Positions 38,595 to 49,118 of a DNA stretch of 64,000 nucleotides are shown here, piece by piece (within the stretch, counting starts at the first letter, position 1; the number at the start of each line of letters is the position of its first letter). The stretch covers positions 448,001 to 512,000 of the forward strand of contig CM000429.1 of the NCBI GenBank assembly GCA_000165345.1, in the 5' to 3' direction. A model generated the notes under the pieces. It did no database searches. It saw nothing but the letters and a program-made list of their open reading frames with translations, and was not told where the DNA came from. The position numbers and the translations under genes were made by a program.

Positions 38595-40517
38595 TCATAA
38601 ATTATTTTTCTGCACTTTTTTGGCTTCTTTGGCTAACTTTCTTGCTGCTCTCTCAGCTGCAATTTTTTCCCTGTTAGTGTGATAGGCATTCCTCCTTTCA
38701 ATGTCTTTAGTGTTTTCCCTAGCTCCCGATTCAGTAAGCATTTTGATTAATAGGTCTGGAGATTCTCCGAGCTGTACGGTTAGATTGTATACAAGATTAA
38801 TCTTGTCATTCTCTCGTTTAGAATCAACAATATCTCTTGTGAAGTAGCCTATTCTTTCGAATTGATATCTATTCATCTTTATTTCTCCTTTACTATTAAA
38901 AAATTCATCATTCAATAAGTTCTTTTCTGAAAAGCCATGTATTACTACAAGACTCTTGTTATTAATGAATTGCCTCCAATCTTTATCCTGATTTTCAGGC
39001 TCAGGAAGCGTAAAAAGACGGCCATAAAGCCTGAACTCAACATTAGTAACATTGCTTGTAGACAACCAATGTATCGCAGCCAATTTTTTCTTGTTAACAT
39101 TTGAATCATTTTCATTATCAGAGGAATGAATAATGCAATGTACTTCTTTTACTTCCTTAGTATCTGTATCAATTATAGCATTTTTACATGTGATTGCATA
39201 TGAATACTTTAGTCTAACTGAACCGCCAATAAATAGCCTTTTAAAATCACCAGGTGGCTGCTGAGAATCAATTTCTTGATTTTCATCGAACCAAAAATCA
39301 CTTTTTTCAATCCACAAATTTCTCGTCAAGTACAGGACTCTTTCGCCCATGTCAATATTATCATCAGGATGGTTTTTTACAGTTATTTCAACTGCTTCTT
39401 TTTGGAAACACTCATCCCAATTAATAATGACTACTTTTAGTGGTTGAATGCAGGCAAATCTTCTTTGGCATATGCTATGCAAATTTTCTTTCACACAATC
39501 CTCTAATAGTTGAATATGTATCATTTGATCTCTTTTTGAAGCGCCTATCTTATCGCAAAAGTCCCACAGAGACTGTGGAGGGTACCCCTTTCTCCTTACA
39601 GCAGAGAGGGTAGGCATTCTAGGGTCGTCCCAGCCAGCTACATGTTTTTCATTAACTAGTAAAAGAAGTTTCCTTTTACTTAGTACCAAATATGTCATAT
39701 TTAATCGTGCAAATTCAATCTGTCTTGTTTTGGTAATTTCTAGCTCAGATTGTAGCCAATCATACAACGGTCGATGAAGCTCAAACTCCAATGTACAAAT
39801 ACTATGAGTTATTCCCTCTATTGAATCACTTTGGCCGTGAGCAAAGTCATACATTGGATAAATAACCCATTTGTCGCCAGTATGGGGATGGGACTGTTTG
39901 AGAATCCTATATAAAATCGGGTCACGTAAATTTGGATTTCCATGTTTCATATCTATCTTTGCCCTTAAAACGCATTCGCCTTCATCACATTTTCCATCTT
40001 TCATTCTCTCAAAGAGTTCCATATTTTCGTTAATTGAACGATTTCTATATATAGATTCTACTGCAGGAGTATTTGAATCTCCCCTGTTTTTCCTAATTTC
40101 TTCTACTGTCTGATGATCAACATATGCCTTCCCAGCAAGAATTAACTTTTTTGCCCACTCATACAGTTGGTCAAAGTAATCGGATGCGTAGTATTTATGT
40201 TCGCCCCAGTCAACACCCAGCCATCTAACATCTTCTTCTATTGCGTCTATATACTGCTGCTCTTCAGAATATGGGTTTGTGTCATCATAGCGTAGGTGGA
40301 ATCTGCCATCATAAATCTTTGCTATCCCGTAGTTTAAACAGATTGATTTTGCATGTCCTAAATGAAGAAATCCATTTGGTTCGGGAGGAAACCTTGTGAC
40401 AATTTTGTTATGTTTACCATTCTTTAGATCATCTTCTACTATCTGTTTAATAAAATTTGTTGTATTTGATACAACATTAATATGTTCATTTTCAATTTTC
40501 AATCCTAAAGAAGCCAT
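38595..40517 (-). CDS. Glutaminyl-tRNA synthetase (class I; bacterial-like length without the eukaryotic N-terminal appended domain, with a Lys-rich C-terminal tail)
   Basis: 640 aa. [41 protein letters not shown] is almost identical in pattern to E. coli/eukaryotic GlnRS ([36 protein letters not shown]). It has a KMSKS-type LVLSKRK and an anticodon-binding beta-barrel region. The C-terminal ..[18 protein letters not shown] is K-rich. Confidence 0.85.
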   Translation of the reverse strand: [640 protein letters not shown]

Positions 40518-40648
40518 TTGTATAAATTGTATACTTGCTGTAAAATTCTAAAAACTGACTACAGATGTTTTTGCGGGGCAATCATGACAAGGTGAAAAAA
40601 AATATATTTTATTCACTTAAACATTACTCTATAGGATAAATAAATTTA

Positions 40649-41494
40649 TTATTCACGAAAATTAAACATATAGTTGCTATTATTATTTCCTGGGGGGAAA
40701 AACATATCATTATCAGGGATAGTAGTCCCGCCTGGAATGGAAGAAATGGGAATATTTTTTGGTTTACCGAATATTTTTGGTTGGTTTTTGAAAATAATAC
40801 TTTCTGGCCCTACTAAGCTTCCTCTAACACCATTACTATCAATTAAAGGGTCAACGCTCTTGCGAAAATTGTTTCCAATATATTCTTCAAAACTCCTCTC
40901 AGTTTCTAATAAAGGCTCACATTTTATTATAGGAATTTTATGCCCTTCTTCTATATTAATTTTTGAATTGTTATTATAAATTTTATTTCTATTAAAGAAT
41001 CCATCAATTTCATTTCTAATCAAACCTGATAATTCAAACATCAAAGATTCATTACTACTGTAGTTTTCTGATATTTTAAAGGGAAATTCCAATTTCATGG
41101 CTTCTCCTATTAGATTGCTCTTCACTGATAATTGAACCGATGTTTCAGAAGAGTTTAAGTCAAAGATTAATTCTGGTATTACTTTTTCGATCTTTTTAGA
41201 GCAAATTTTGCTTATATAAAATAGTCTATTTTTTTTGCTTTTTGACCTCCAGTTTGAAGGCAATAACTCCATTGAAATACTATCATCCCGTGAATTTATG
41301 GGAACTCCAAACTCTTCGCTAATGCATGTGTGATCTAGGGTGTTATCTATTTCGTCATCTTCACCTTTAATGGATTTAACTGGAATGAATCCAAGGTCTA
41401 ATAATATTGAATGAGTTATTACTAAAACATTCTCATATAAATCTTCTGGATTTGCGTGCTTAAATAAAATATGTATCCAAAATGATCTATCCAT
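40649..41494 (-). CDS. Hypothetical protein, possibly a proteasome inhibitor PI31-like (FP-domain) protein
   Basis: 281 aa. The N-terminal ~150 aa is globular (MDRSFWIHILFKHANPEDLYENVLVITHSILLDLGFIPV..). The C-terminus is a G/P-rich tail (..FGKPKNIPISSIPGGTTIPDNDMFFPPGNNNSNY..), reminiscent of the PI31 architecture. This is a weak call. Confidence 0.25.
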   Translation of the reverse strand: MDRSFWIHILFKHANPEDLYENVLVITHSILLDLGFIPVKSIKGEDDEIDNTLDHTCISEEFGVPINSRDDSISMELLPSNWRSKSKKNRLFYISKICSKKIEKVIPELIFDLNSSETSVQLSVKSNLIGEAMKLEFPFKISENYSSNESLMFELSGLIRNEIDGFFNRNKIYNNNSKINIEEGHKIPIIKCEPLLETERSFEEYIGNNFRKSVDPLIDSNGVRGSLVGPESIIFKNQPKIFGKPKNIPISSIPGGTTIPDNDMFFPPGNNNSNYMFNFRE

Positions 41495-41590
41495 TTAGTT
41501 TATATTTTCTTTATTATTCTTATAGTGTTATTTTTCTATTTCCACTGCCCACATCTTTGCGCAATATAAATTGAAAAAAAAAAAAATATC

Positions 41591-43660
41591 TTATTTTAAT
41601 TTTAGTTTATCCCCATCGTCGAGCATTTCCACAAAATTTGCGGTTTCAATGAAAGGCCTTTTTGTAATCCCTACGTTGGTTACAGAACATCCATGAGCGA
41701 ATGTGTGGCTTGTCTCGAACTCTATCTTTGATGGATTCGTAATATCGCTAATTGTCAATATCAAGTTGTATCGACTAATATTTAGTCTAACTTGCAATAC
41801 CATATTAGTTTTAAGAATTATTTGGTCTTTTTTCCCATTTTCATAGTTTATTCTAGATCTTAGATTATACACGTCATTAGTCTGAAAAGCACTACCAAAA
41901 CATCTTTCCATAAAATCATAGTAAAAAATTTTTGGTACTTGTGATGTATTTTTCGCTTCAGATGACCCCCTACAGCATACTCCTATCCTTATTCTACCCA
42001 TGTATGTCTTGCATACCTGCACCTGCCAAATCATGTCTGATACAAGTCTGTAATCGCCAATCGTCCATGCCCACTTGTATTTACCCGATACTGATGTCCT
42101 TCTTGCGAGTGAGATAGGATAAAGACCTAAATGTGTATTTGTTGTAAACTCGTTATTTTCCTTCCAAGGCACCAAACGCCCACTACCCTCATTTCCCAAC
42201 AACTTATTAAGTGCTGCGTCTAATAATAGTGAATCTAGCTCTTTTGTTCGGATTTTAAGCAAATCATGAGGTGCCATTTGTTCAAATCTAATGTTTTTTA
42301 AAAATTCTAGAGAGTTTTTTCTTTTATTTGAAAGTAAGCCCATGCTGCTTTCTCTCTGGACTAAGTATAACTTTAATGCCAAGAATATATCAATCTCTCC
42401 CATAATGATCCTTTCACTCTTCAACACTTTCAACAATACGTCAGGGCCAAGTGCTAAATGAGGTCCTTTAAAAAGAGCTTGTGCGCAATCTGCTAACAGA
42501 TAAACTGTTAGCTCTATCAATCCCTCCATTTCCAATGATTCTGCAACTGAAGACATCTGAACGATTATATCAATATTCAATGGAGAATTTAACATTTGAA
42601 ACAATTCTTCCTCTAGCAATTGCACTTTAAACCTTCTTGCTTCATGTAATACTGTTAGAATTAAATATGGATTTGCTCCTCGCAAAGAAGTAGTATGGCC
42701 ATAAATAAATAATAATAACATTCTGACTGCTTCAGGGTAAATCGCCTTTATTTTATATTCCGGTCTAAGTAAGCTGGCCTTAATTTTATCTAATTTATTC
42801 TGCAAATTTTGATCATCGTAATTTAAATTAAATTGCTCATTAATTTCCTGTCTGGATTCCATTATTTGATTAATCTCATCGCGCATTATCGGCGATGCCA
42901 AACTTAATAAATTACTATGCACTGGTATTCTTAAAGAGGATACTGGTGGCAATATTCTCGAATCCAATTCATCTAAAGATACTAATTTTGACCCGTTATT
43001 AATAAATTCATTTTGAGCCCTCTTAACTAAATCTCTAGTATTTAAACTCGGTAGTGAAATTAAATTATCATTACCTTTATTTTTCGATTTCGTGTACTCA
43101 CTGTCTACAAGCGAAGACGAAAATTGAATAGCCTTTATTTTTTTAATTTCCTCCATCTTCTTCATGTTCTTTTCAAATAACTCGGTTGCCTTATCATTAG
43201 GTATAAGTACAATATCAAGATCGCAAGTAGGCTCCTGAAGATAAATGTCTTTCGCCGGAATCCTTCCAATAGGGTCAATAGCTAAAGATTTGATCTGTAC
43301 TGAATCATCACTGTCATTCATATTCTTTTCTCCAACTGTATTATATAGTCTATTCAAAATAACCTCTTTTTCAATTGAAATAAGTTTTGGAATGATACTT
43401 TCAAGAGTTACATAATCTAAATCATCCACTTCTCTAACTAAAATACTTCCCTTATTATCGAAATATCCTTCATTAATCCATTTTATCATTGTGGAAGCCG
43501 AAAATGGTCCAATTAATTGATCTTTATCATCACGGAAATAATAACCCGATTCATTGGCCAGTTTCTTTGTCCTACCCCCATCCTTTCTCTCTAACCTTTT
43601 CTGAGAAGGTTTCATATTTGAGTTCTCCACTCTTTTAAATCCCTCAAGTTTGCCAACCAT
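41591..43660 (-). CDS. GYF-domain plus BTB/POZ-BACK protein with a conserved C-terminal domain (paralog A of a tandem pair)
   Basis: About 689 aa from the first ATG (43660; the track start at 43666 is a TTG). GYF signature YYFRDDKDQLIGPFSASTMIKWINEGYFDNKGSILV. BTB core ..LRIPVHSNLLSLASPIMRDE...PEAVRMLLLFIYGHTTSL..ANPYLILTVLHEARRFKVQLLEEEL. C-terminal block WAWTIGDYRLVSDMIW..GRIRIGVCC..KIFYYDF is shared with paralog B. Confidence 0.6.
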   Translation of the reverse strand: MVGKLEGFKRVENSNMKPSQKRLERKDGGRTKKLANESGYYFRDDKDQLIGPFSASTMIKWINEGYFDNKGSILVREVDDLDYVTLESIIPKLISIEKEVILNRLYNTVGEKNMNDSDDSVQIKSLAIDPIGRIPAKDIYLQEPTCDLDIVLIPNDKATELFEKNMKKMEEIKKIKAIQFSSSLVDSEYTKSKNKGNDNLISLPSLNTRDLVKRAQNEFINNGSKLVSLDELDSRILPPVSSLRIPVHSNLLSLASPIMRDEINQIMESRQEINEQFNLNYDDQNLQNKLDKIKASLLRPEYKIKAIYPEAVRMLLLFIYGHTTSLRGANPYLILTVLHEARRFKVQLLEEELFQMLNSPLNIDIIVQMSSVAESLEMEGLIELTVYLLADCAQALFKGPHLALGPDVLLKVLKSERIIMGEIDIFLALKLYLVQRESSMGLLSNKRKNSLEFLKNIRFEQMAPHDLLKIRTKELDSLLLDAALNKLLGNEGSGRLVPWKENNEFTTNTHLGLYPISLARRTSVSGKYKWAWTIGDYRLVSDMIWQVQVCKTYMGRIRIGVCCRGSSEAKNTSQVPKIFYYDFMERCFGSAFQTNDVYNLRSRINYENGKKDQIILKTNMVLQVRLNISRYNLILTISDITNPSKIEFETSHTFAHGCSVTNVGITKRPFIETANFVEMLDDGDKLKLK

Positions 43661-43735
43661 TATCAATATTTAAATTTTAACAAACCCTTAATATAAAAAG
43701 ATAACCACACATGCCGCCTATTCTGTTTTGACAAT

Positions 43736-45985
43736 TTATTTAGATCTATTGGTTTTTTGCTGCCTTGTTATAGTTAAAAACGATGGTATACCAAGCGAAT
43801 CTCCTGGATCCAGCATCTCAATAAATATTTTCGTTTCTATATAAGGTTTTTTACTAACTTCAAGTCTTTCCACAAGAAACCCGTGATCATAATAATTTTC
43901 GATGTAAGTTCCGCAATCAATACTTTCGATCCTTAATAAAACGGAATAATCATGAATTGAAACTACTAAATGGTACATTTGACCTTTTTCTATGCGGCTT
44001 TCAAATGCCATAGTTTGTTTATATAAATCTTGAACATTATCTTCACTAGTAGAACTTCGAAGCTTTGTGCCCGGCATCTCATTAATTTTGGAATCTTTAT
44101 TAGTTTTCCATATCGAGTTACCAAACCTGAAGTTGTTAACTTTAATATTCTCTCTTTTAATAACTGATGATCTAATCCTTGAAGTACATTGAAAAATATT
44201 ACTACCCAAAAATGCGGAAACAAACTCTTTTTCCGAAAAATCATAATAAAAAACCTTCGACATTCGAATATTTTGAGTTTCTGTTATCACAGGTTTACCT
44301 GTACAACAAACCCCAAGTCTAAGTTTTCCTCTGAAAGACTTTAATACCTTAAATGCAAATGTCATTTCGCTAATCAATCTCGAGTCTCCTGTCGTCCATG
44401 CCCATCTTGATTGGAATAATCCATTGCTATTTAGATTTAGCTTTCCAGATCTAACCAGCCCCACAGGATACTCACCGTCTCTATAAATTACATTATACTC
44501 TGAATTTGGTAGCCATGGTTTAAGTCTGCCTTCTTCTTCACAATTCGTCAACTTCTTTAATGCTGCATCCAAAATTAAACTATCAAGTTTTTTTACGCGT
44601 ATTGACTTTAATTCTTCTGCTGACATTTGATCATATCTGACAAATTTATATATTGCAATCTCTTTTTTATAATCACTTTGTTCAAAAGATTCTGTCCATA
44701 CTCCGACTTCAATTTCTTTTTGTTGTATAAAATGCTGTGTTGCATAAAACACTTGTATTTCGTCCATCATCACATAGTTATTTTTAATTAATTTTACATA
44801 AGCATCAACACTTAGTGCTAAATATGGTCCTTGAAGTATATAACTTGCACAACTTGCAATCATTGTTATAATTTCATCTACCAATTTTGGGAATTTTAAA
44901 ATTGCTGCTGCCGCTGCGATTTCAATCAAGTCAACAATATCTAGCTTAGTAGAAAATAAATGTATTAATAACTCATCTTCTAGTTTCTTGAACATAAAAC
45001 GCCTAGACTCTTTCCACATAGATACTAACAACAATTTATTCATTGATAGAACTTCGGATGTATGGCCATACATATAACGTATTATTGCTTGAAAGGCAAT
45101 TGGACAGTCAGATTCAATTGTAAGAACTGGATTAATCAAGCTTTGCTCTCTTTCTTCAATTGTGCATTGACCTGCTGCAACCCTTTCTCTAAGTCTGAAA
45201 TGTTCTTCGAATAGTGTTTTCATACTATTTTTAAGTAAAGGTGACGAGGTTGCCAATACACTGCTATGCACATTAATTTTTAATATGGGTGCAAAAGCAA
45301 ATGAATCATTATTTTTAAATTCTTCATTTCCAAAGAATTGTTCGGCATAATTTTCAAAATATGGAGCTGAAAGGTTATATTTTTCATCTTTAAATTCCAA
45401 TGGATTCCCCATAATTTTTGTATTAATTGCATTGACTTGATCTACGAAAATCGCTGTAATATTTGACCTTGTTGTATGCATTTGCGCTTGAATATCCGTA
45501 GCTTTTAATGATGGTTTAACTATTAATATTAAATCCTTATGTTGGTCATCATTCTCCTCTAATAATTTAATTTGGTCATCAATTAACGTTATTTCTTTAA
45601 CTTCAATAGGCTCCGCTTGTTTTTTTTTAATACTTGATGTTTTATTTGGGCATATTTTCCTTGAAAAGTTCATTTCAGCCTCATTTAGTAGTTCTGGAAG
45701 TATTTGTTCAAGGGAAACTCTTTCTGCAGGGCTACTTGTCAAATTTCGAAACAATAGGTCACCTTTACCATCAAAAAATCCATTCCTAATCCAAGTCAAT
45801 ATTTCGTTCGAACCAAATGGGCCTTGTTCGACACCCATTTCATCAACAAAACAATATTGACTGTTATTAGCTATATGCCCTATTTCCTTTTTATTTCTGC
45901 TTTTATTAAATAATGTCATTAAGAAGTCTTCATAAAAGGGTTTAATGAGATTTAATATTTCATGCAAATATTCGTGCATGCGCAT
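43736..45985 (-). CDS. GYF-domain plus BTB/POZ-BACK protein with a conserved C-terminal domain (paralog B of a tandem pair)
   Basis: 749 aa. GYF: QYCFVDEMGVEQGPFGSNEILTWIRNGFFDGKGDLLF. BTB: LKINVHSSVLATSSPLLKNS...PIAFQAIIRYMYGHTSEV..MNKLLLVSMWKESRRFMFKKLEDEL. C-terminus: WAWTTGDSRLISEMTF..GKLRLGVCC..KVFYYDF. Colinear with paralog A at roughly 30-35% identity by eye. Confidence 0.6.
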   Translation of the reverse strand: MRMHEYLHEILNLIKPFYEDFLMTLFNKSRNKKEIGHIANNSQYCFVDEMGVEQGPFGSNEILTWIRNGFFDGKGDLLFRNLTSSPAERVSLEQILPELLNEAEMNFSRKICPNKTSSIKKKQAEPIEVKEITLIDDQIKLLEENDDQHKDLILIVKPSLKATDIQAQMHTTRSNITAIFVDQVNAINTKIMGNPLEFKDEKYNLSAPYFENYAEQFFGNEEFKNNDSFAFAPILKINVHSSVLATSSPLLKNSMKTLFEEHFRLRERVAAGQCTIEEREQSLINPVLTIESDCPIAFQAIIRYMYGHTSEVLSMNKLLLVSMWKESRRFMFKKLEDELLIHLFSTKLDIVDLIEIAAAAAILKFPKLVDEIITMIASCASYILQGPYLALSVDAYVKLIKNNYVMMDEIQVFYATQHFIQQKEIEVGVWTESFEQSDYKKEIAIYKFVRYDQMSAEELKSIRVKKLDSLILDAALKKLTNCEEEGRLKPWLPNSEYNVIYRDGEYPVGLVRSGKLNLNSNGLFQSRWAWTTGDSRLISEMTFAFKVLKSFRGKLRLGVCCTGKPVITETQNIRMSKVFYYDFSEKEFVSAFLGSNIFQCTSRIRSSVIKRENIKVNNFRFGNSIWKTNKDSKINEMPGTKLRSSTSEDNVQDLYKQTMAFESRIEKGQMYHLVVSIHDYSVLLRIESIDCGTYIENYYDHGFLVERLEVSKKPYIETKIFIEMLDPGDSLGIPSFLTITRQQKTNRSK

Positions 45986-46064
45986 GCCAATATATTAAGA
46001 TAATCATGAGGAAAAAAAAAACAAAAAGTAAATAAAGGATCAGATTTAATAAATAATATTTATA

Positions 46065-47222
46065 TCACTCAAACCTTTTCTTTTTTCTAGAATCAGTATG
46101 ATTTGACCTTTCCTCTTTTTTGCATAGTCTGCAAGTGCATGTAAAATGATAATTCTGGATAAGGCTTGTTCGTTCAGCCAATGGAAGAGTGTTATCAACA
46201 TATGAAATAGTTAGTTCCTCCCCCTTCATAATATCTCTATTTGTTGTAACATATATTGTGCTGTCATCTATAGTATATACATGGCAATTCGGGTCACAAC
46301 TATGGTTGAAACATGATTGTATTACGCATATACACGCACCTTTAATAATTCCAATTGTAGGTTCATTATCAGATATGTTTCTATTATCTAACTTACCTGA
46401 AAGATGAAGACCCCAAATATTTAATCCTTGTGAATTAAGGGTTAATTGACCAACTATTTGTTCAATTGTCTCCCTACTAAGTAGTGAATCAATGATAAAA
46501 CTATCAGAGAAAGAATCATTTATTTGATCGGAAAGTACGCTATGAATGCAATTTATAAGAGAATTGAAGTTAATTTCAGGGAACAATGCTGTAGTTGGGG
46601 CTACAAAGTTTTCCATTGATTTAGTTCCTAATTTATATGCATGATACAAATTTTCGTCTTTCATACCCAGTTCTTGCCAATAAAAATAAATATCTGCAGC
46701 CATTTGGGCAATGCAACGGGATACTGCTTCAGCTGTTATTGGAATATCCCCTAATTTATCTACGGATCTTTGGTAATTTCTTAAATTCAAAATACCCTTT
46801 GTACCATTGATATAATAGCCCCATCCACTCCTTAATGAAGAGGAATTTGGATCATAATCTTCAAAGTTAACTCCTGATATTTTTTTAAAACAAGATCTAC
46901 TGCAGATCTTTTTTTCTAATCCGAGCGTACTTAACGATAAAAAACCACTATTTTCAGGGTAATTAATCTTTAGGCAATTTTCGCAAAAAATCAGATTTTC
47001 TAGTTTAGCAAATGAAGTTTTAATTGGCCATGAAATGTAGGGTACTTCTTGGAAAAAATTTGTACCATCTGGAATCTCCTTGCTAGAGTGAATATGTTTT
47101 CCTTTATTTTCTGAATAGAAAATATCAAAATAATTCTCATTCCCTGTCAAGGAATTTATTTCATCCAATAAAATGTGGTAATTATTTTCGATTTCGCACT
47201 TTCCCTCAATACAGCTATCCAT
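46065..47222 (-). CDS. SET-domain lysine methyltransferase with an N-terminal MYND-like zinc finger (SMYD/SET5-like)
   Basis: 385 aa. C-terminal NHSCDPNCHVYTIDDSTIYVTTNRDIMKGEELTISY plus post-SET Cys cluster FTCTCRLCKKEE. N-terminal Cys-rich CENCLKINYPENSG...CSRSCFKK. Confidence 0.65.
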   Translation of the reverse strand: MDSCIEGKCEIENNYHILLDEINSLTGNENYFDIFYSENKGKHIHSSKEIPDGTNFFQEVPYISWPIKTSFAKLENLIFCENCLKINYPENSGFLSLSTLGLEKKICSRSCFKKISGVNFEDYDPNSSSLRSGWGYYINGTKGILNLRNYQRSVDKLGDIPITAEAVSRCIAQMAADIYFYWQELGMKDENLYHAYKLGTKSMENFVAPTTALFPEINFNSLINCIHSVLSDQINDSFSDSFIIDSLLSRETIEQIVGQLTLNSQGLNIWGLHLSGKLDNRNISDNEPTIGIIKGACICVIQSCFNHSCDPNCHVYTIDDSTIYVTTNRDIMKGEELTISYVDNTLPLAERTSLIQNYHFTCTCRLCKKEERSNHTDSRKKKRFE

Positions 47223-47336
47223 TATACTGAAATATAATTTTGATATAATGGACTAGTTATCAATTTTTTTTAGGATGTTACTGTTGACGAATAATTGGCG
47301 GTTTCTACAAATATTAAAAATACAATCACAGAAATA

Positions 47337-49118
47337 ATGAGTTTACAGAATTTTCCAATAATCCCCATCATTTTGCCTAAGATTGATGCTATATATAAGT
47401 TTAATAAAGTCTCTCCCTTTAATAAAAAACAGTTCAATGCCAGCCATTACAATAAACCATTTGAAAATGAGAGCAATAATAAAGGCATAATTAACAAACT
47501 AATCTATATAGAGAAACAACTTCCATATATTTTATTGGCCAGCTGCAAAGCTTCAGCCATACCTGTCAAAGACTTTAAGGAATCAATTGAGCGTTTTTTA
47601 ACGATTTCAAAAGATAGTGTTCAGTACTACCCAGTTATCAACGAAACAGATGATTATGTAAGGGTTAATATCAAACTTCAAAGCCATAATCTTGCAAAAA
47701 AAATCGGTCATTTCTTAGATATCATTAATCAAAGCTATTCTAATCTTCAGAGTTCAACGATTATTAACAATTGGGAGATTTATGATGGCAATAATGGGAA
47801 AAAAATTACTATTGAAATAAACTCCTTAGACAATAGAGGAACAATTTATATTCAAATTCCTGCAGATAAAAGCTCGCCTGCAAATTTAGAATATGTTAAA
47901 TCAAAAAATTCCTTATCCAAGAATGATTTGGAAGCTATCCACTTCCTTATGAAACCTGTAATCGGCAATGGTCATTTAGAAGAAACAAATTTAGAAAAGA
48001 ATTTATTAAATAAACGTTTATTTTTGGATAAAATCAAATCATTTGGTAATAAACAGACAGAAAAAGAAATAATCGATAACTTAGACCGATTATTTGACAG
48101 TTTCAGCAAGGACCTTTTTACCGATACTTTAATTGATTTAAATACTGTTTTGAGTTCTGCGGAAAATAAAGCAAAAAAATTTGATCAACATTCTAGGGAA
48201 TCAGATTTTTTAAATACAGATAGCAGCTCAAATATTTATCACGATGATAGTGTCATACCTTTATTGGAAAATTTGGGTGTGCAAGTGTTTTTAAATCGAG
48301 ATAATTGCGATTCACATAGAAATTTATGGGACTCTTTGGGAGGATATCAAGATGTTAAACGCCAAATCGAGGAACACATACTATTAAGTTTCAAATATCC
48401 AGATGTTCTTGATAAGATTGTTAATGGAACAAGGGCGCAAAGTAATTCAAACAACAGGCCTAAATTAATCTTATTTGAAGGTCCGCCAGGAACTGGTAAG
48501 ACAACTTCTGCTAAAATAATTGGTAATTCAATTCAAGTGCCTCTAATATATGTTTCGCTCGAAAATATTGTCTCAAAATGGTATGGGGAAAGTGAAACCA
48601 AGCTAGCTCAGATCTTCGATATTGCAAAAAAATTTAATGAAGGGTGTATAATATTTATTGATGAAATTGACACTTTGGCATCTTCAAGAGATAAAACGTT
48701 TAGTATGCATGAAGGTTCAAAAAAAATACTCTCTGTGTTATTGAGAAAGTTGGATGGTTTTGATACATTAAATTCAAAGACTCTCTTGATTTGCGCAACA
48801 AATCGTAGAAGAGATATTGATGAAGCGTTTCTAAATAGAGTTGATACAACTGTACTATTTAATCTACCGAATGAAAATGAAAGGGAACTGATTTTCAAAC
48901 AGTATGCAAAACATTTAACATTTGAAGAACGAATGGTGCTTGCGAAAATGTCAAAAAAGTTATCTGGAAGGTCAATTCGTCACGTTTGCCTAGAAGCAGA
49001 AAGGGAGTGGGCTTCCATGATTTTGAAAAAGAAAGAAAAAGGCGAATACCAACGGGATGAAATTGAGCTACCTACAATTGAGATCTATAAAGAAGCATTA
49101 AAAAAAAGGGTTAGCTAG
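47337..49118 (+). CDS. AAA+ ATPase (single C-terminal AAA domain, unique N-terminal region)
   Basis: About 593 aa from the first ATG (the track start at 47295 is a TTG). Walker A LFEGPPGTGKTTSAKIIG, Walker B CIIFIDEIDTLASSR, and a second region of homology ..LLICATNRRRDIDEAFLNRVD... Confidence 0.7.
   Translation: MSLQNFPIIPIILPKIDAIYKFNKVSPFNKKQFNASHYNKPFENESNNKGIINKLIYIEKQLPYILLASCKASAIPVKDFKESIERFLTISKDSVQYYPVINETDDYVRVNIKLQSHNLAKKIGHFLDIINQSYSNLQSSTIINNWEIYDGNNGKKITIEINSLDNRGTIYIQIPADKSSPANLEYVKSKNSLSKNDLEAIHFLMKPVIGNGHLEETNLEKNLLNKRLFLDKIKSFGNKQTEKEIIDNLDRLFDSFSKDLFTDTLIDLNTVLSSAENKAKKFDQHSRESDFLNTDSSSNIYHDDSVIPLLENLGVQVFLNRDNCDSHRNLWDSLGGYQDVKRQIEEHILLSFKYPDVLDKIVNGTRAQSNSNNRPKLILFEGPPGTGKTTSAKIIGNSIQVPLIYVSLENIVSKWYGESETKLAQIFDIAKKFNEGCIIFIDEIDTLASSRDKTFSMHEGSKKILSVLLRKLDGFDTLNSKTLLICATNRRRDIDEAFLNRVDTTVLFNLPNENERELIFKQYAKHLTFEERMVLAKMSKKLSGRSIRHVCLEAEREWASMILKKKEKGEYQRDEIELPTIEIYKEALKKRVS

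Follow-up and report, generated by a model that had tools for sequence, protein, structure and literature searches.

The closest described relative of the genes considered here is PCR14, a subunit of the preconoidal ring P2 of Toxoplasma gondii, the structure of which has been determined at 3.3 Å (Protein Data Bank [PDB] entry 9ya0) (Zeng et al., Nat Struct Mol Biol 2025, PMC12819142). The P2 ring consists of ~46 repeats of a unit of 20 different proteins, which include formin-1, myosin L with its light chains, AKMT2, PCR4 and PCR5, CGP, and SEC23/24, and it has been proposed as the platform on which the actin polymerization that drives gliding motility starts (PMC12819142). Six P2 subunits were newly named in that work, among them PCR14, of which each repeat contains two copies; the conservation table of that study marks homologs in Cryptosporidium parvum, Plasmodium falciparum, Babesia, Theileria, Eimeria, and Neospora, and cryo-electron tomography of C. 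parvum is described as showing P2/P3-like rings (PMC12819142). Preconoidal rings are the start of the actin flow that underlies apicomplexan gliding and host cell invasion, and the composition of the ring in Cryptosporidium is essentially unstudied. Here, we describe two tandem genes, paralogs A and B, that lie in a stretch of 64,000 nucleotides (the window; assembly GCA_000165345.1, contig CM000429.1, positions 448,001 to 512,000 of the forward strand) and that are probably PCR14 co-orthologs specific to Cryptosporidium.

Two tandem genes and their match to PCR14

Both proteins matched the PCR14 chain of the P2 structure. Using phmmer, we obtained E values of 3.5e-50 for paralog A and 4.7e-48 for paralog B against chain KA of 9ya0 (PCR14, TGME49_311880, 728 amino acids). 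Each protein aligned with this chain in three colinear stretches, which covered a GYF domain, a BTB-BACK region, and the C-terminal domain, and a profile of the family matched it with an E value of 2.2e-178 over profile positions 9-602. Moreover, the modeled fold of paralog A is the same as that of the PCR14 chain seen by cryo-electron microscopy (cryo-EM). The two PCR14 chains of 9ya0 (KA and KE) gave template modeling (TM) scores of 0.85 versus 0.76 against the same model, indicating that KA and KE differ in conformation. Between 447 and 464 of the 728 PCR14 residues are modeled in 9ya0, which is the size of the BTB-BACK-SPRY part minus one disordered loop; by this counting of residues, as distinct from an inspection of coordinates, the GYF-bearing N terminus of PCR14 is most likely flexible and outside the resolved part.

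We conclude that both genes probably encode structural ring subunits that carry a GYF head and that are co-orthologous to PCR14. Of this reading, the homology, the fold, the synteny, and the timing of the duplication are shown by the data. Descriptions of the family, of its structure, and of its occurrence in C. parvum had already appeared in December 2025, and the gain is in that respect incremental. New here are the statement that each of the two C. parvum genes is a PCR14 co-ortholog, the SPRY assignment of the C-terminal domain, and the placing of the tandem duplication on the Cryptosporidium stem. Seen as PCR14 co-orthologs, two hypothetical proteins labeled "GYF domain-containing" acquire a definite location and role that experiments can address.

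Exact protein matches identified the window as part of chromosome 1 of C. parvum Iowa II; its GC content is ~30%, and it is dense in long uninterrupted open reading frames (ORFs). An earlier note on this DNA had described two adjacent, colinear minus-strand genes 75 bp apart, and both the ORFs and the spacer were found as described there. Paralog A (41591..43660, minus strand) encodes 689 amino acids from its ATG (EAK88391.1/Q5CSL8, CPATCC_000195), and paralog B (43736..45985, minus strand) encodes 749 amino acids (EAK88390.1/Q5CSL7), or 727 in newer models. Both translations are identical to these deposited C. parvum Iowa II proteins, and the 75-bp intergenic spacer (43661..43735, minus strand) runs from the stop codon of B to the start codon of A. 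The program that listed the ORFs opened paralog A at a TTG at position 43666 (43660-43666, two codons 5' of the ATG), giving 691 versus 689 amino acids; it is the ATG model (689 amino acids) that exactly matches the deposited protein. Newer models of paralog B begin at Met23 (position 45919) and are labeled "BTB/POZ and GYF domain-containing protein," and the B ORF exactly matches both annotated models (749 and 727 amino acids).

GCATGC-type motifs have been reported as upstream motifs associated with ApiAP2 proteins in Cryptosporidium. A palindromic tandem, GCATGCGCATGC, occupies positions 45976-45987 (within 45967-45996, at the minus-strand 5' end of B), where it overlaps the ATG of the 749-amino-acid B model and lies ~57 nt upstream of Met23 (45919). 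This position at the older B start suggests that it is a candidate promoter element and favors the shorter, 727-amino-acid model. GCATGC itself is not enriched in the window (7 occurrences observed versus 6.5 expected).

Domain architecture of the paralogs

From its N terminus, paralog A comprises a GYF domain, a linker, a BTB domain, a BACK domain, and an SPRY-like domain. The earlier note had read each protein as a GYF motif joined to BTB/BACK and a conserved C-terminal domain. All of the motif strings that it quoted are present in the translations, and the outline was upheld by profile and fold, but Pfam matches to BTB and BACK are below threshold or absent in the pair itself. The AlphaFold2 model of paralog A, made with an alignment of 27 family sequences (predicted local distance difference test score [pLDDT], 73; predicted TM score, 0.63), was confident for the GYF domain (residues 40-100), the BTB-BACK region (241-490), and the C-terminal β-sandwich (500-689), with disordered segments between the domains (1-37, 105-141, and 175-240). 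A model made with 13 Cryptosporidium sequences only (pLDDT, 53) was discarded in its favor.

The GYF domain of paralog A (43361..43546, minus strand; residues ~39-100; pLDDT, ~83) is of the Smy2/GIGYF type and passed the Pfam gathering threshold for PF02213 (33.6 bits versus a threshold of 25.7 bits). The GYF domain of paralog B (45668..45859, minus strand; residues ~43-106 of the 749-amino-acid model) aligns with that of A and scored slightly under the threshold, at 22.6 bits; B orthologs of C. felis, C. bovis, and a Cryptosporidium public read assembly (P0010) carry a precomputed PF02213 match. The best matches of the family profile among GYF domains were to GIGYF2 (1.8e-6), GIGYF1 (3.5e-5), and SMY2 (0.033). 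In both paralogs, across 13 Cryptosporidium sequences, Y40, D44, G51, P52, F53, W61, G65, and F67 are invariant, and direct reading of the sequences showed that the ligand-cradle signature GPF-x4-[MI]-x2-W-x3-G-[YF]-F is present in the pair. An Asp at one position of the GYF signature marks the Smy2 subtype. The pair has "x-Y/F-x-D" followed by GPF...W...G(Y/F)F, with the Asp at the Smy2-type position; relative to GIGYF and Smy2 proteins, the first Trp of the signature is replaced by Tyr and the next Tyr by Phe.

The BTB/POZ core of paralog A (42626..42940, minus strand; residues ~241-345) carries, beyond the "SPxxxx" helix, a helical insertion of ~30 to 40 residues; a BACK-like helical domain (42191..42625, minus strand; residues ~346-490) comes next. 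The BTB-BACK region of paralog B (44540..45289, minus strand; residues ~233-482) is colinear with those of A and Toxoplasma PCR14 (TgPCR14). Taken singly, the two sequences gave weak domain calls: the Pfam BTB model (PF00651) scored 19.0 bits in A and 12.8 bits in B, both under the threshold of 20.5, and the BACK model (PF07707) had no match in A or B. Several orthologs exceeded the Pfam thresholds, however, for BTB (Selenidium, 21.2 bits), for BACK (Eimeria, 26.9 bits; P0030, 23.4 bits), and for GYF (Eimeria and Selenidium). In addition, the 27-member family profile matched crystal structures of the BTB-BACK proteins KLHL11 (4.8e-11), KLHL3, KBTBD2, KEAP1, SPOP, and gigaxonin. With the family profile and the passing orthologs, the weak single-sequence calls become firm, and the pair shows both the BTB-BACK fold and homology to it at the profile level.

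The C-terminal domain has the SPRY/B30.2 fold, matching TRIM, SPSB, HERC1, and RanBP9/10 structures. In paralog A, this β-sandwich (41594..42190, minus strand; residues ~491-689) holds the WAWT.GD...GVCC...FYYDF block, so that the conserved block shared by the two proteins is the core of the sandwich. The corresponding region of paralog B (43739..44539, minus strand; residues ~483-749) was delimited by alignment with A and has B-specific insertions at residues ~624-641 and 649-670; from its homology to the modeled paralog A, we infer an SPRY fold here as well. The Pfam SPRY model (PF00622) had no match in the window proteins at E values of ≤1 or in ten orthologs at E values of ≤0.1. The SPRY assignment was reached independently in this analysis. 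A PHR identity of the C-terminal domain, a comparison raised in the earlier note, is ruled out by the SPRY-like fold.

Family distribution and timing of the duplication

When 1.84 billion representative proteins were scanned in full with HMMER, only about a dozen full-architecture representatives emerged at E values of <1e-30, and the named ones were all apicomplexan (Eimeria, Neospora, Selenidium, Cardiosporidium, Theileria, and Babesia). Weaker matches came from Plasmodium, gregarine transcriptomes, and a BACK-containing fragment of the chromerid Chromera, and the Toxoplasma/Neospora lineage had a single representative at the 50% clustering level of the deep search. Homolog searches seeded by words, whether run with A, B, or the alignment designated A1, returned Cryptosporidium sequences only. 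The earlier note had not recognized the combination from standard families and had named widespread, annotated homologs as the sign of an ordinary family; since homologs are indeed spread across the Apicomplexa, are annotated as BTB/POZ and GYF domain-containing proteins, and include one of solved structure, this is a known family. Two full-architecture sequences on short contigs from public read assemblies (P0021 and P0026) form a sister pair with 100% support near Selenidium; they could represent two species or a second, independent duplication.

BLASTP aligned A and B colinearly over their full lengths, with 29% identity across 726 columns (E value, 3e-89). This agrees with the old, diverged pair envisaged earlier, although the 30 to 35% identity given for it was slightly high. 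Similarity at the DNA level is confined to one 27-nt stretch, which encodes WAWT.GD; since this is all that is left, the duplication is old and the copies have not been homogenized. Recent gene conversion between A and B is thereby ruled out.

We dated the duplication with a neighbor-joining tree of 571 columns and 200 bootstrap replicates, in which A orthologs and B orthologs each formed a group with 100% support and A plus B formed a Cryptosporidium-only clade with 79.5% support. The deepest-branching, gastric species have both genes (A in C. muris; B in C. andersoni, C. serpentis, and C. muris), and gene order in C. muris is the same as that in C. parvum: AAA, SET, B, A, a 310-amino-acid gene, GlnRS, and HEAT. 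The tree, the presence of both copies in gastric species, and the synteny with C. muris together point to a single tandem duplication on the stem of the genus, in keeping with the lineage-specific duplication that had been proposed. A and B are equally distant from the Eimeria and Neospora orthologs (1.80-1.83), and their conservation within the genus is similar, which indicates that neither copy is decaying. Sites at which A and B are each invariant but carry different residues make up 20% of BTB, 17% of BACK, 12% of SPRY, and 10% of GYF; BTB, BACK, and SPRY together contain 64 of them.

Directly upstream of the pair lies a SMYD-like SET methyltransferase gene (46065-47222, minus strand), annotated as "SET domain containing protein with a cysteine cluster." Because AKMT2 is a SET enzyme of the P2 ring, we compared this neighbor with the ring methyltransferases. 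Its match to SMYD3 had an E value of 8e-9, its match to AKMT (6fnd) had an E value of 0.29, and there was no match to the AKMT2 chain of 9ya0, so that identity as AKMT2 or AKMT, and with it a "ring gene cluster," was rejected. In C. hominis, one protein (P0200, 1102 amino acids, equivalent to 43736-47222) joins the SET gene and B under the name "SET domain and MYND-type zinc finger protein 6." This fusion, which pulls unrelated 385-amino-acid SET proteins into the 90% cluster of B, is probably a gene model artifact. Downstream of A is a gene for 281 amino acids (40649-41494, minus strand) with a subthreshold Pfam match to the PI31 proteasome regulator N-terminal model (19.1 bits versus a cutoff of 21); it is positionally conserved in C. 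muris, where it encodes 310 amino acids. No Rfam family was found in 40000..47500.

Proposed role and comparison with known systems

By homology with the Toxoplasma cryo-EM structure, the rigid BTB-BACK-SPRY body of each paralog would pack as a structural brick in a ~46-fold ring. The N-terminal Smy2/GIGYF-type GYF domain would sit on a disordered tether of ~130 to 140 residues and would probably project from the ring, where it could capture PPG-type proline-rich sequences of a partner, as the conserved aromatic cradle suggests. Ring localization in Cryptosporidium, exposure of the GYF head, and ligand binding are thus properties that we infer for the pair. The P2-type ring that the two proteins would help to build caps the conoid and would bear formin-1 and myosin L, which serve gliding motility. 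Should the GYF heads bind the FH1 region of formin-1 or another proline-rich ring partner, the pair would tie actin nucleation to the architecture of the ring. The BTB-BACK region descends from the cullin-3 adaptor superfamily and is probably used here for assembly and not necessarily for ubiquitylation. Since the tandem duplication on the genus stem, both copies have remained under purifying selection. The pair marks one of the few places where the ring subunits of Cryptosporidium may differ from the Toxoplasma reference structure.

Several observations weigh against this role. The CRISPR fitness score of TgPCR14 is +2.34 (PMC12819142), so the role of PCR14 is dispensable in cultured tachyzoites, and the structural study is silent on the specific contacts of PCR14 (PMC12819142). 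No relevant literature was found for the Cryptosporidium accessions or for "Cryptosporidium" with "GYF domain." The Toxoplasma GYF domain is degenerate (GPM, W→C, and GFI), whereas the Cryptosporidium domains keep the full aromatic signature. Piroplasm orthologs (P0023, P0024, and P0173, from Theileria and Babesia; 457 to 517 amino acids) have no GYF domain, and the Plasmodium ovale ortholog (P0039, 880 amino acids) has only a degenerate remnant of one. Given the degenerate Toxoplasma domain and the GYF-less piroplasms, binding of GYF ligands is not a family-wide property. Finally, the monophyly of A plus B comes from a neighbor-joining and not a maximum-likelihood tree, and its bootstrap support of ~80% is moderate.

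How the two copies divide their work can be considered against the ring itself. In Toxoplasma, one PCR14 gene product occupies two nonequivalent positions per repeat, whereas Cryptosporidium has two diverged tandem genes. We therefore entertain, tentatively and by analogy, the idea that each paralog might be specialized for one of the two positions; the fixed differences in the BTB-BACK region fit such specialization and are weak evidence for it. PCR4 and PCR5 are the P2 precedent for a duplicated subunit whose copies occupy distinct positions, forming a paralogous heterodimer (PMC12819142). They occur across the Apicomplexa and have no sequence relationship to PCR14, so that their likeness to the pair is conceptual only. 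If position specialization were true, a homo-oligomer would have become a hetero-oligomer within a giant cytoskeletal ring, as with PCR4/PCR5, and the interface-bearing BTB-BACK region would have diverged (17 to 20% of positions fixed and different) while the outward GYF heads kept their ligand cradle.

We consider it unlikely that A and B are instead functionally separate, acting at different stages (sporozoite, merozoite, or microgamete) or with one of them placed in another apical structure (the P3 ring or the apical polar ring) or outside rings altogether. Such a separation would accommodate the retention of both copies across the genus at only ~29% identity, the SPRY insertions that are particular to B, the short upstream region that each gene has of its own, and the many fixed-different positions (20% of BTB and 17% of BACK), which are compatible with different partners. 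The equal divergence of A and B from the outgroups, however, shows that neither is a fast-evolving, neofunctionalized copy. Neither the short distance of 75 bp nor the preserved tandem order speaks for or against such a separation.

Less probable still is the role suggested in the earlier note, that of substrate adaptors for a cullin-3-type RING ligase, in which BTB-BACK would bind the cullin and SPRY and/or GYF would recruit proline-rich substrates. The BTB-BACK region is homologous to those of the true CUL3 adaptors KLHL11, KLHL3, KBTBD2, KEAP1, and SPOP, and SPRY is a common substrate recognition domain of E3 ligases, as the TRIM, SPSB, HERC1, and RanBP9/10 matches illustrate; many BTB proteins, however, bind no cullin. 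In KLHL3 and KLHL11, contact with CUL3 involves a φ-x-E motif. Paralog B has F-E-E at this spacing, but A reads M-E-S, most family members have φ-E-x rather than φ-x-E, and in place of the canonical α3-β4 loop an unbroken helix is predicted, with the insertion of 30 to 40 residues after it. Besides those of the SCF and CRL4 groups, C. parvum has a third cullin-domain protein (PMC10927090), but Plasmodium has an ortholog of the pair (P0039) with two cullins only, of the SCF and CRL4 types (PMC10927090). Moreover, TgPCR14 is built into the P2 ring as a fixed structural component in stoichiometric amounts, and neither a cullin nor Rbx is among the 20 P2 subunits (PMC12819142). The label of cullin-3 ubiquitin ligase adaptor is therefore tempting but probably wrong, with an E3-like BTB-BACK-SPRY arrangement serving as a building block.

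Ring subunits with a GYF head, as we propose A and B to be, differ from each of the better-known protein groups with which they share a domain. GIGYF proteins, to which the GYF domains are most similar, are translational repressors without BTB or SPRY domains. The BTB-BACK-PHR proteins (BTBD1/2/3/6) end in a PHR domain, which the pair does not have. The BTB-BACK-Kelch adaptors (KLHL11, KLHL3, KBTBD2, and KEAP1) carry a Kelch propeller where the pair has an SPRY-like C terminus, and the pair has in addition an N-terminal GYF domain and a large BTB insertion at the cullin contact loop. Unlike these adaptors, the characterized member of the PCR14 family is a subunit of a cytoskeletal ring and is not a known E3 component.

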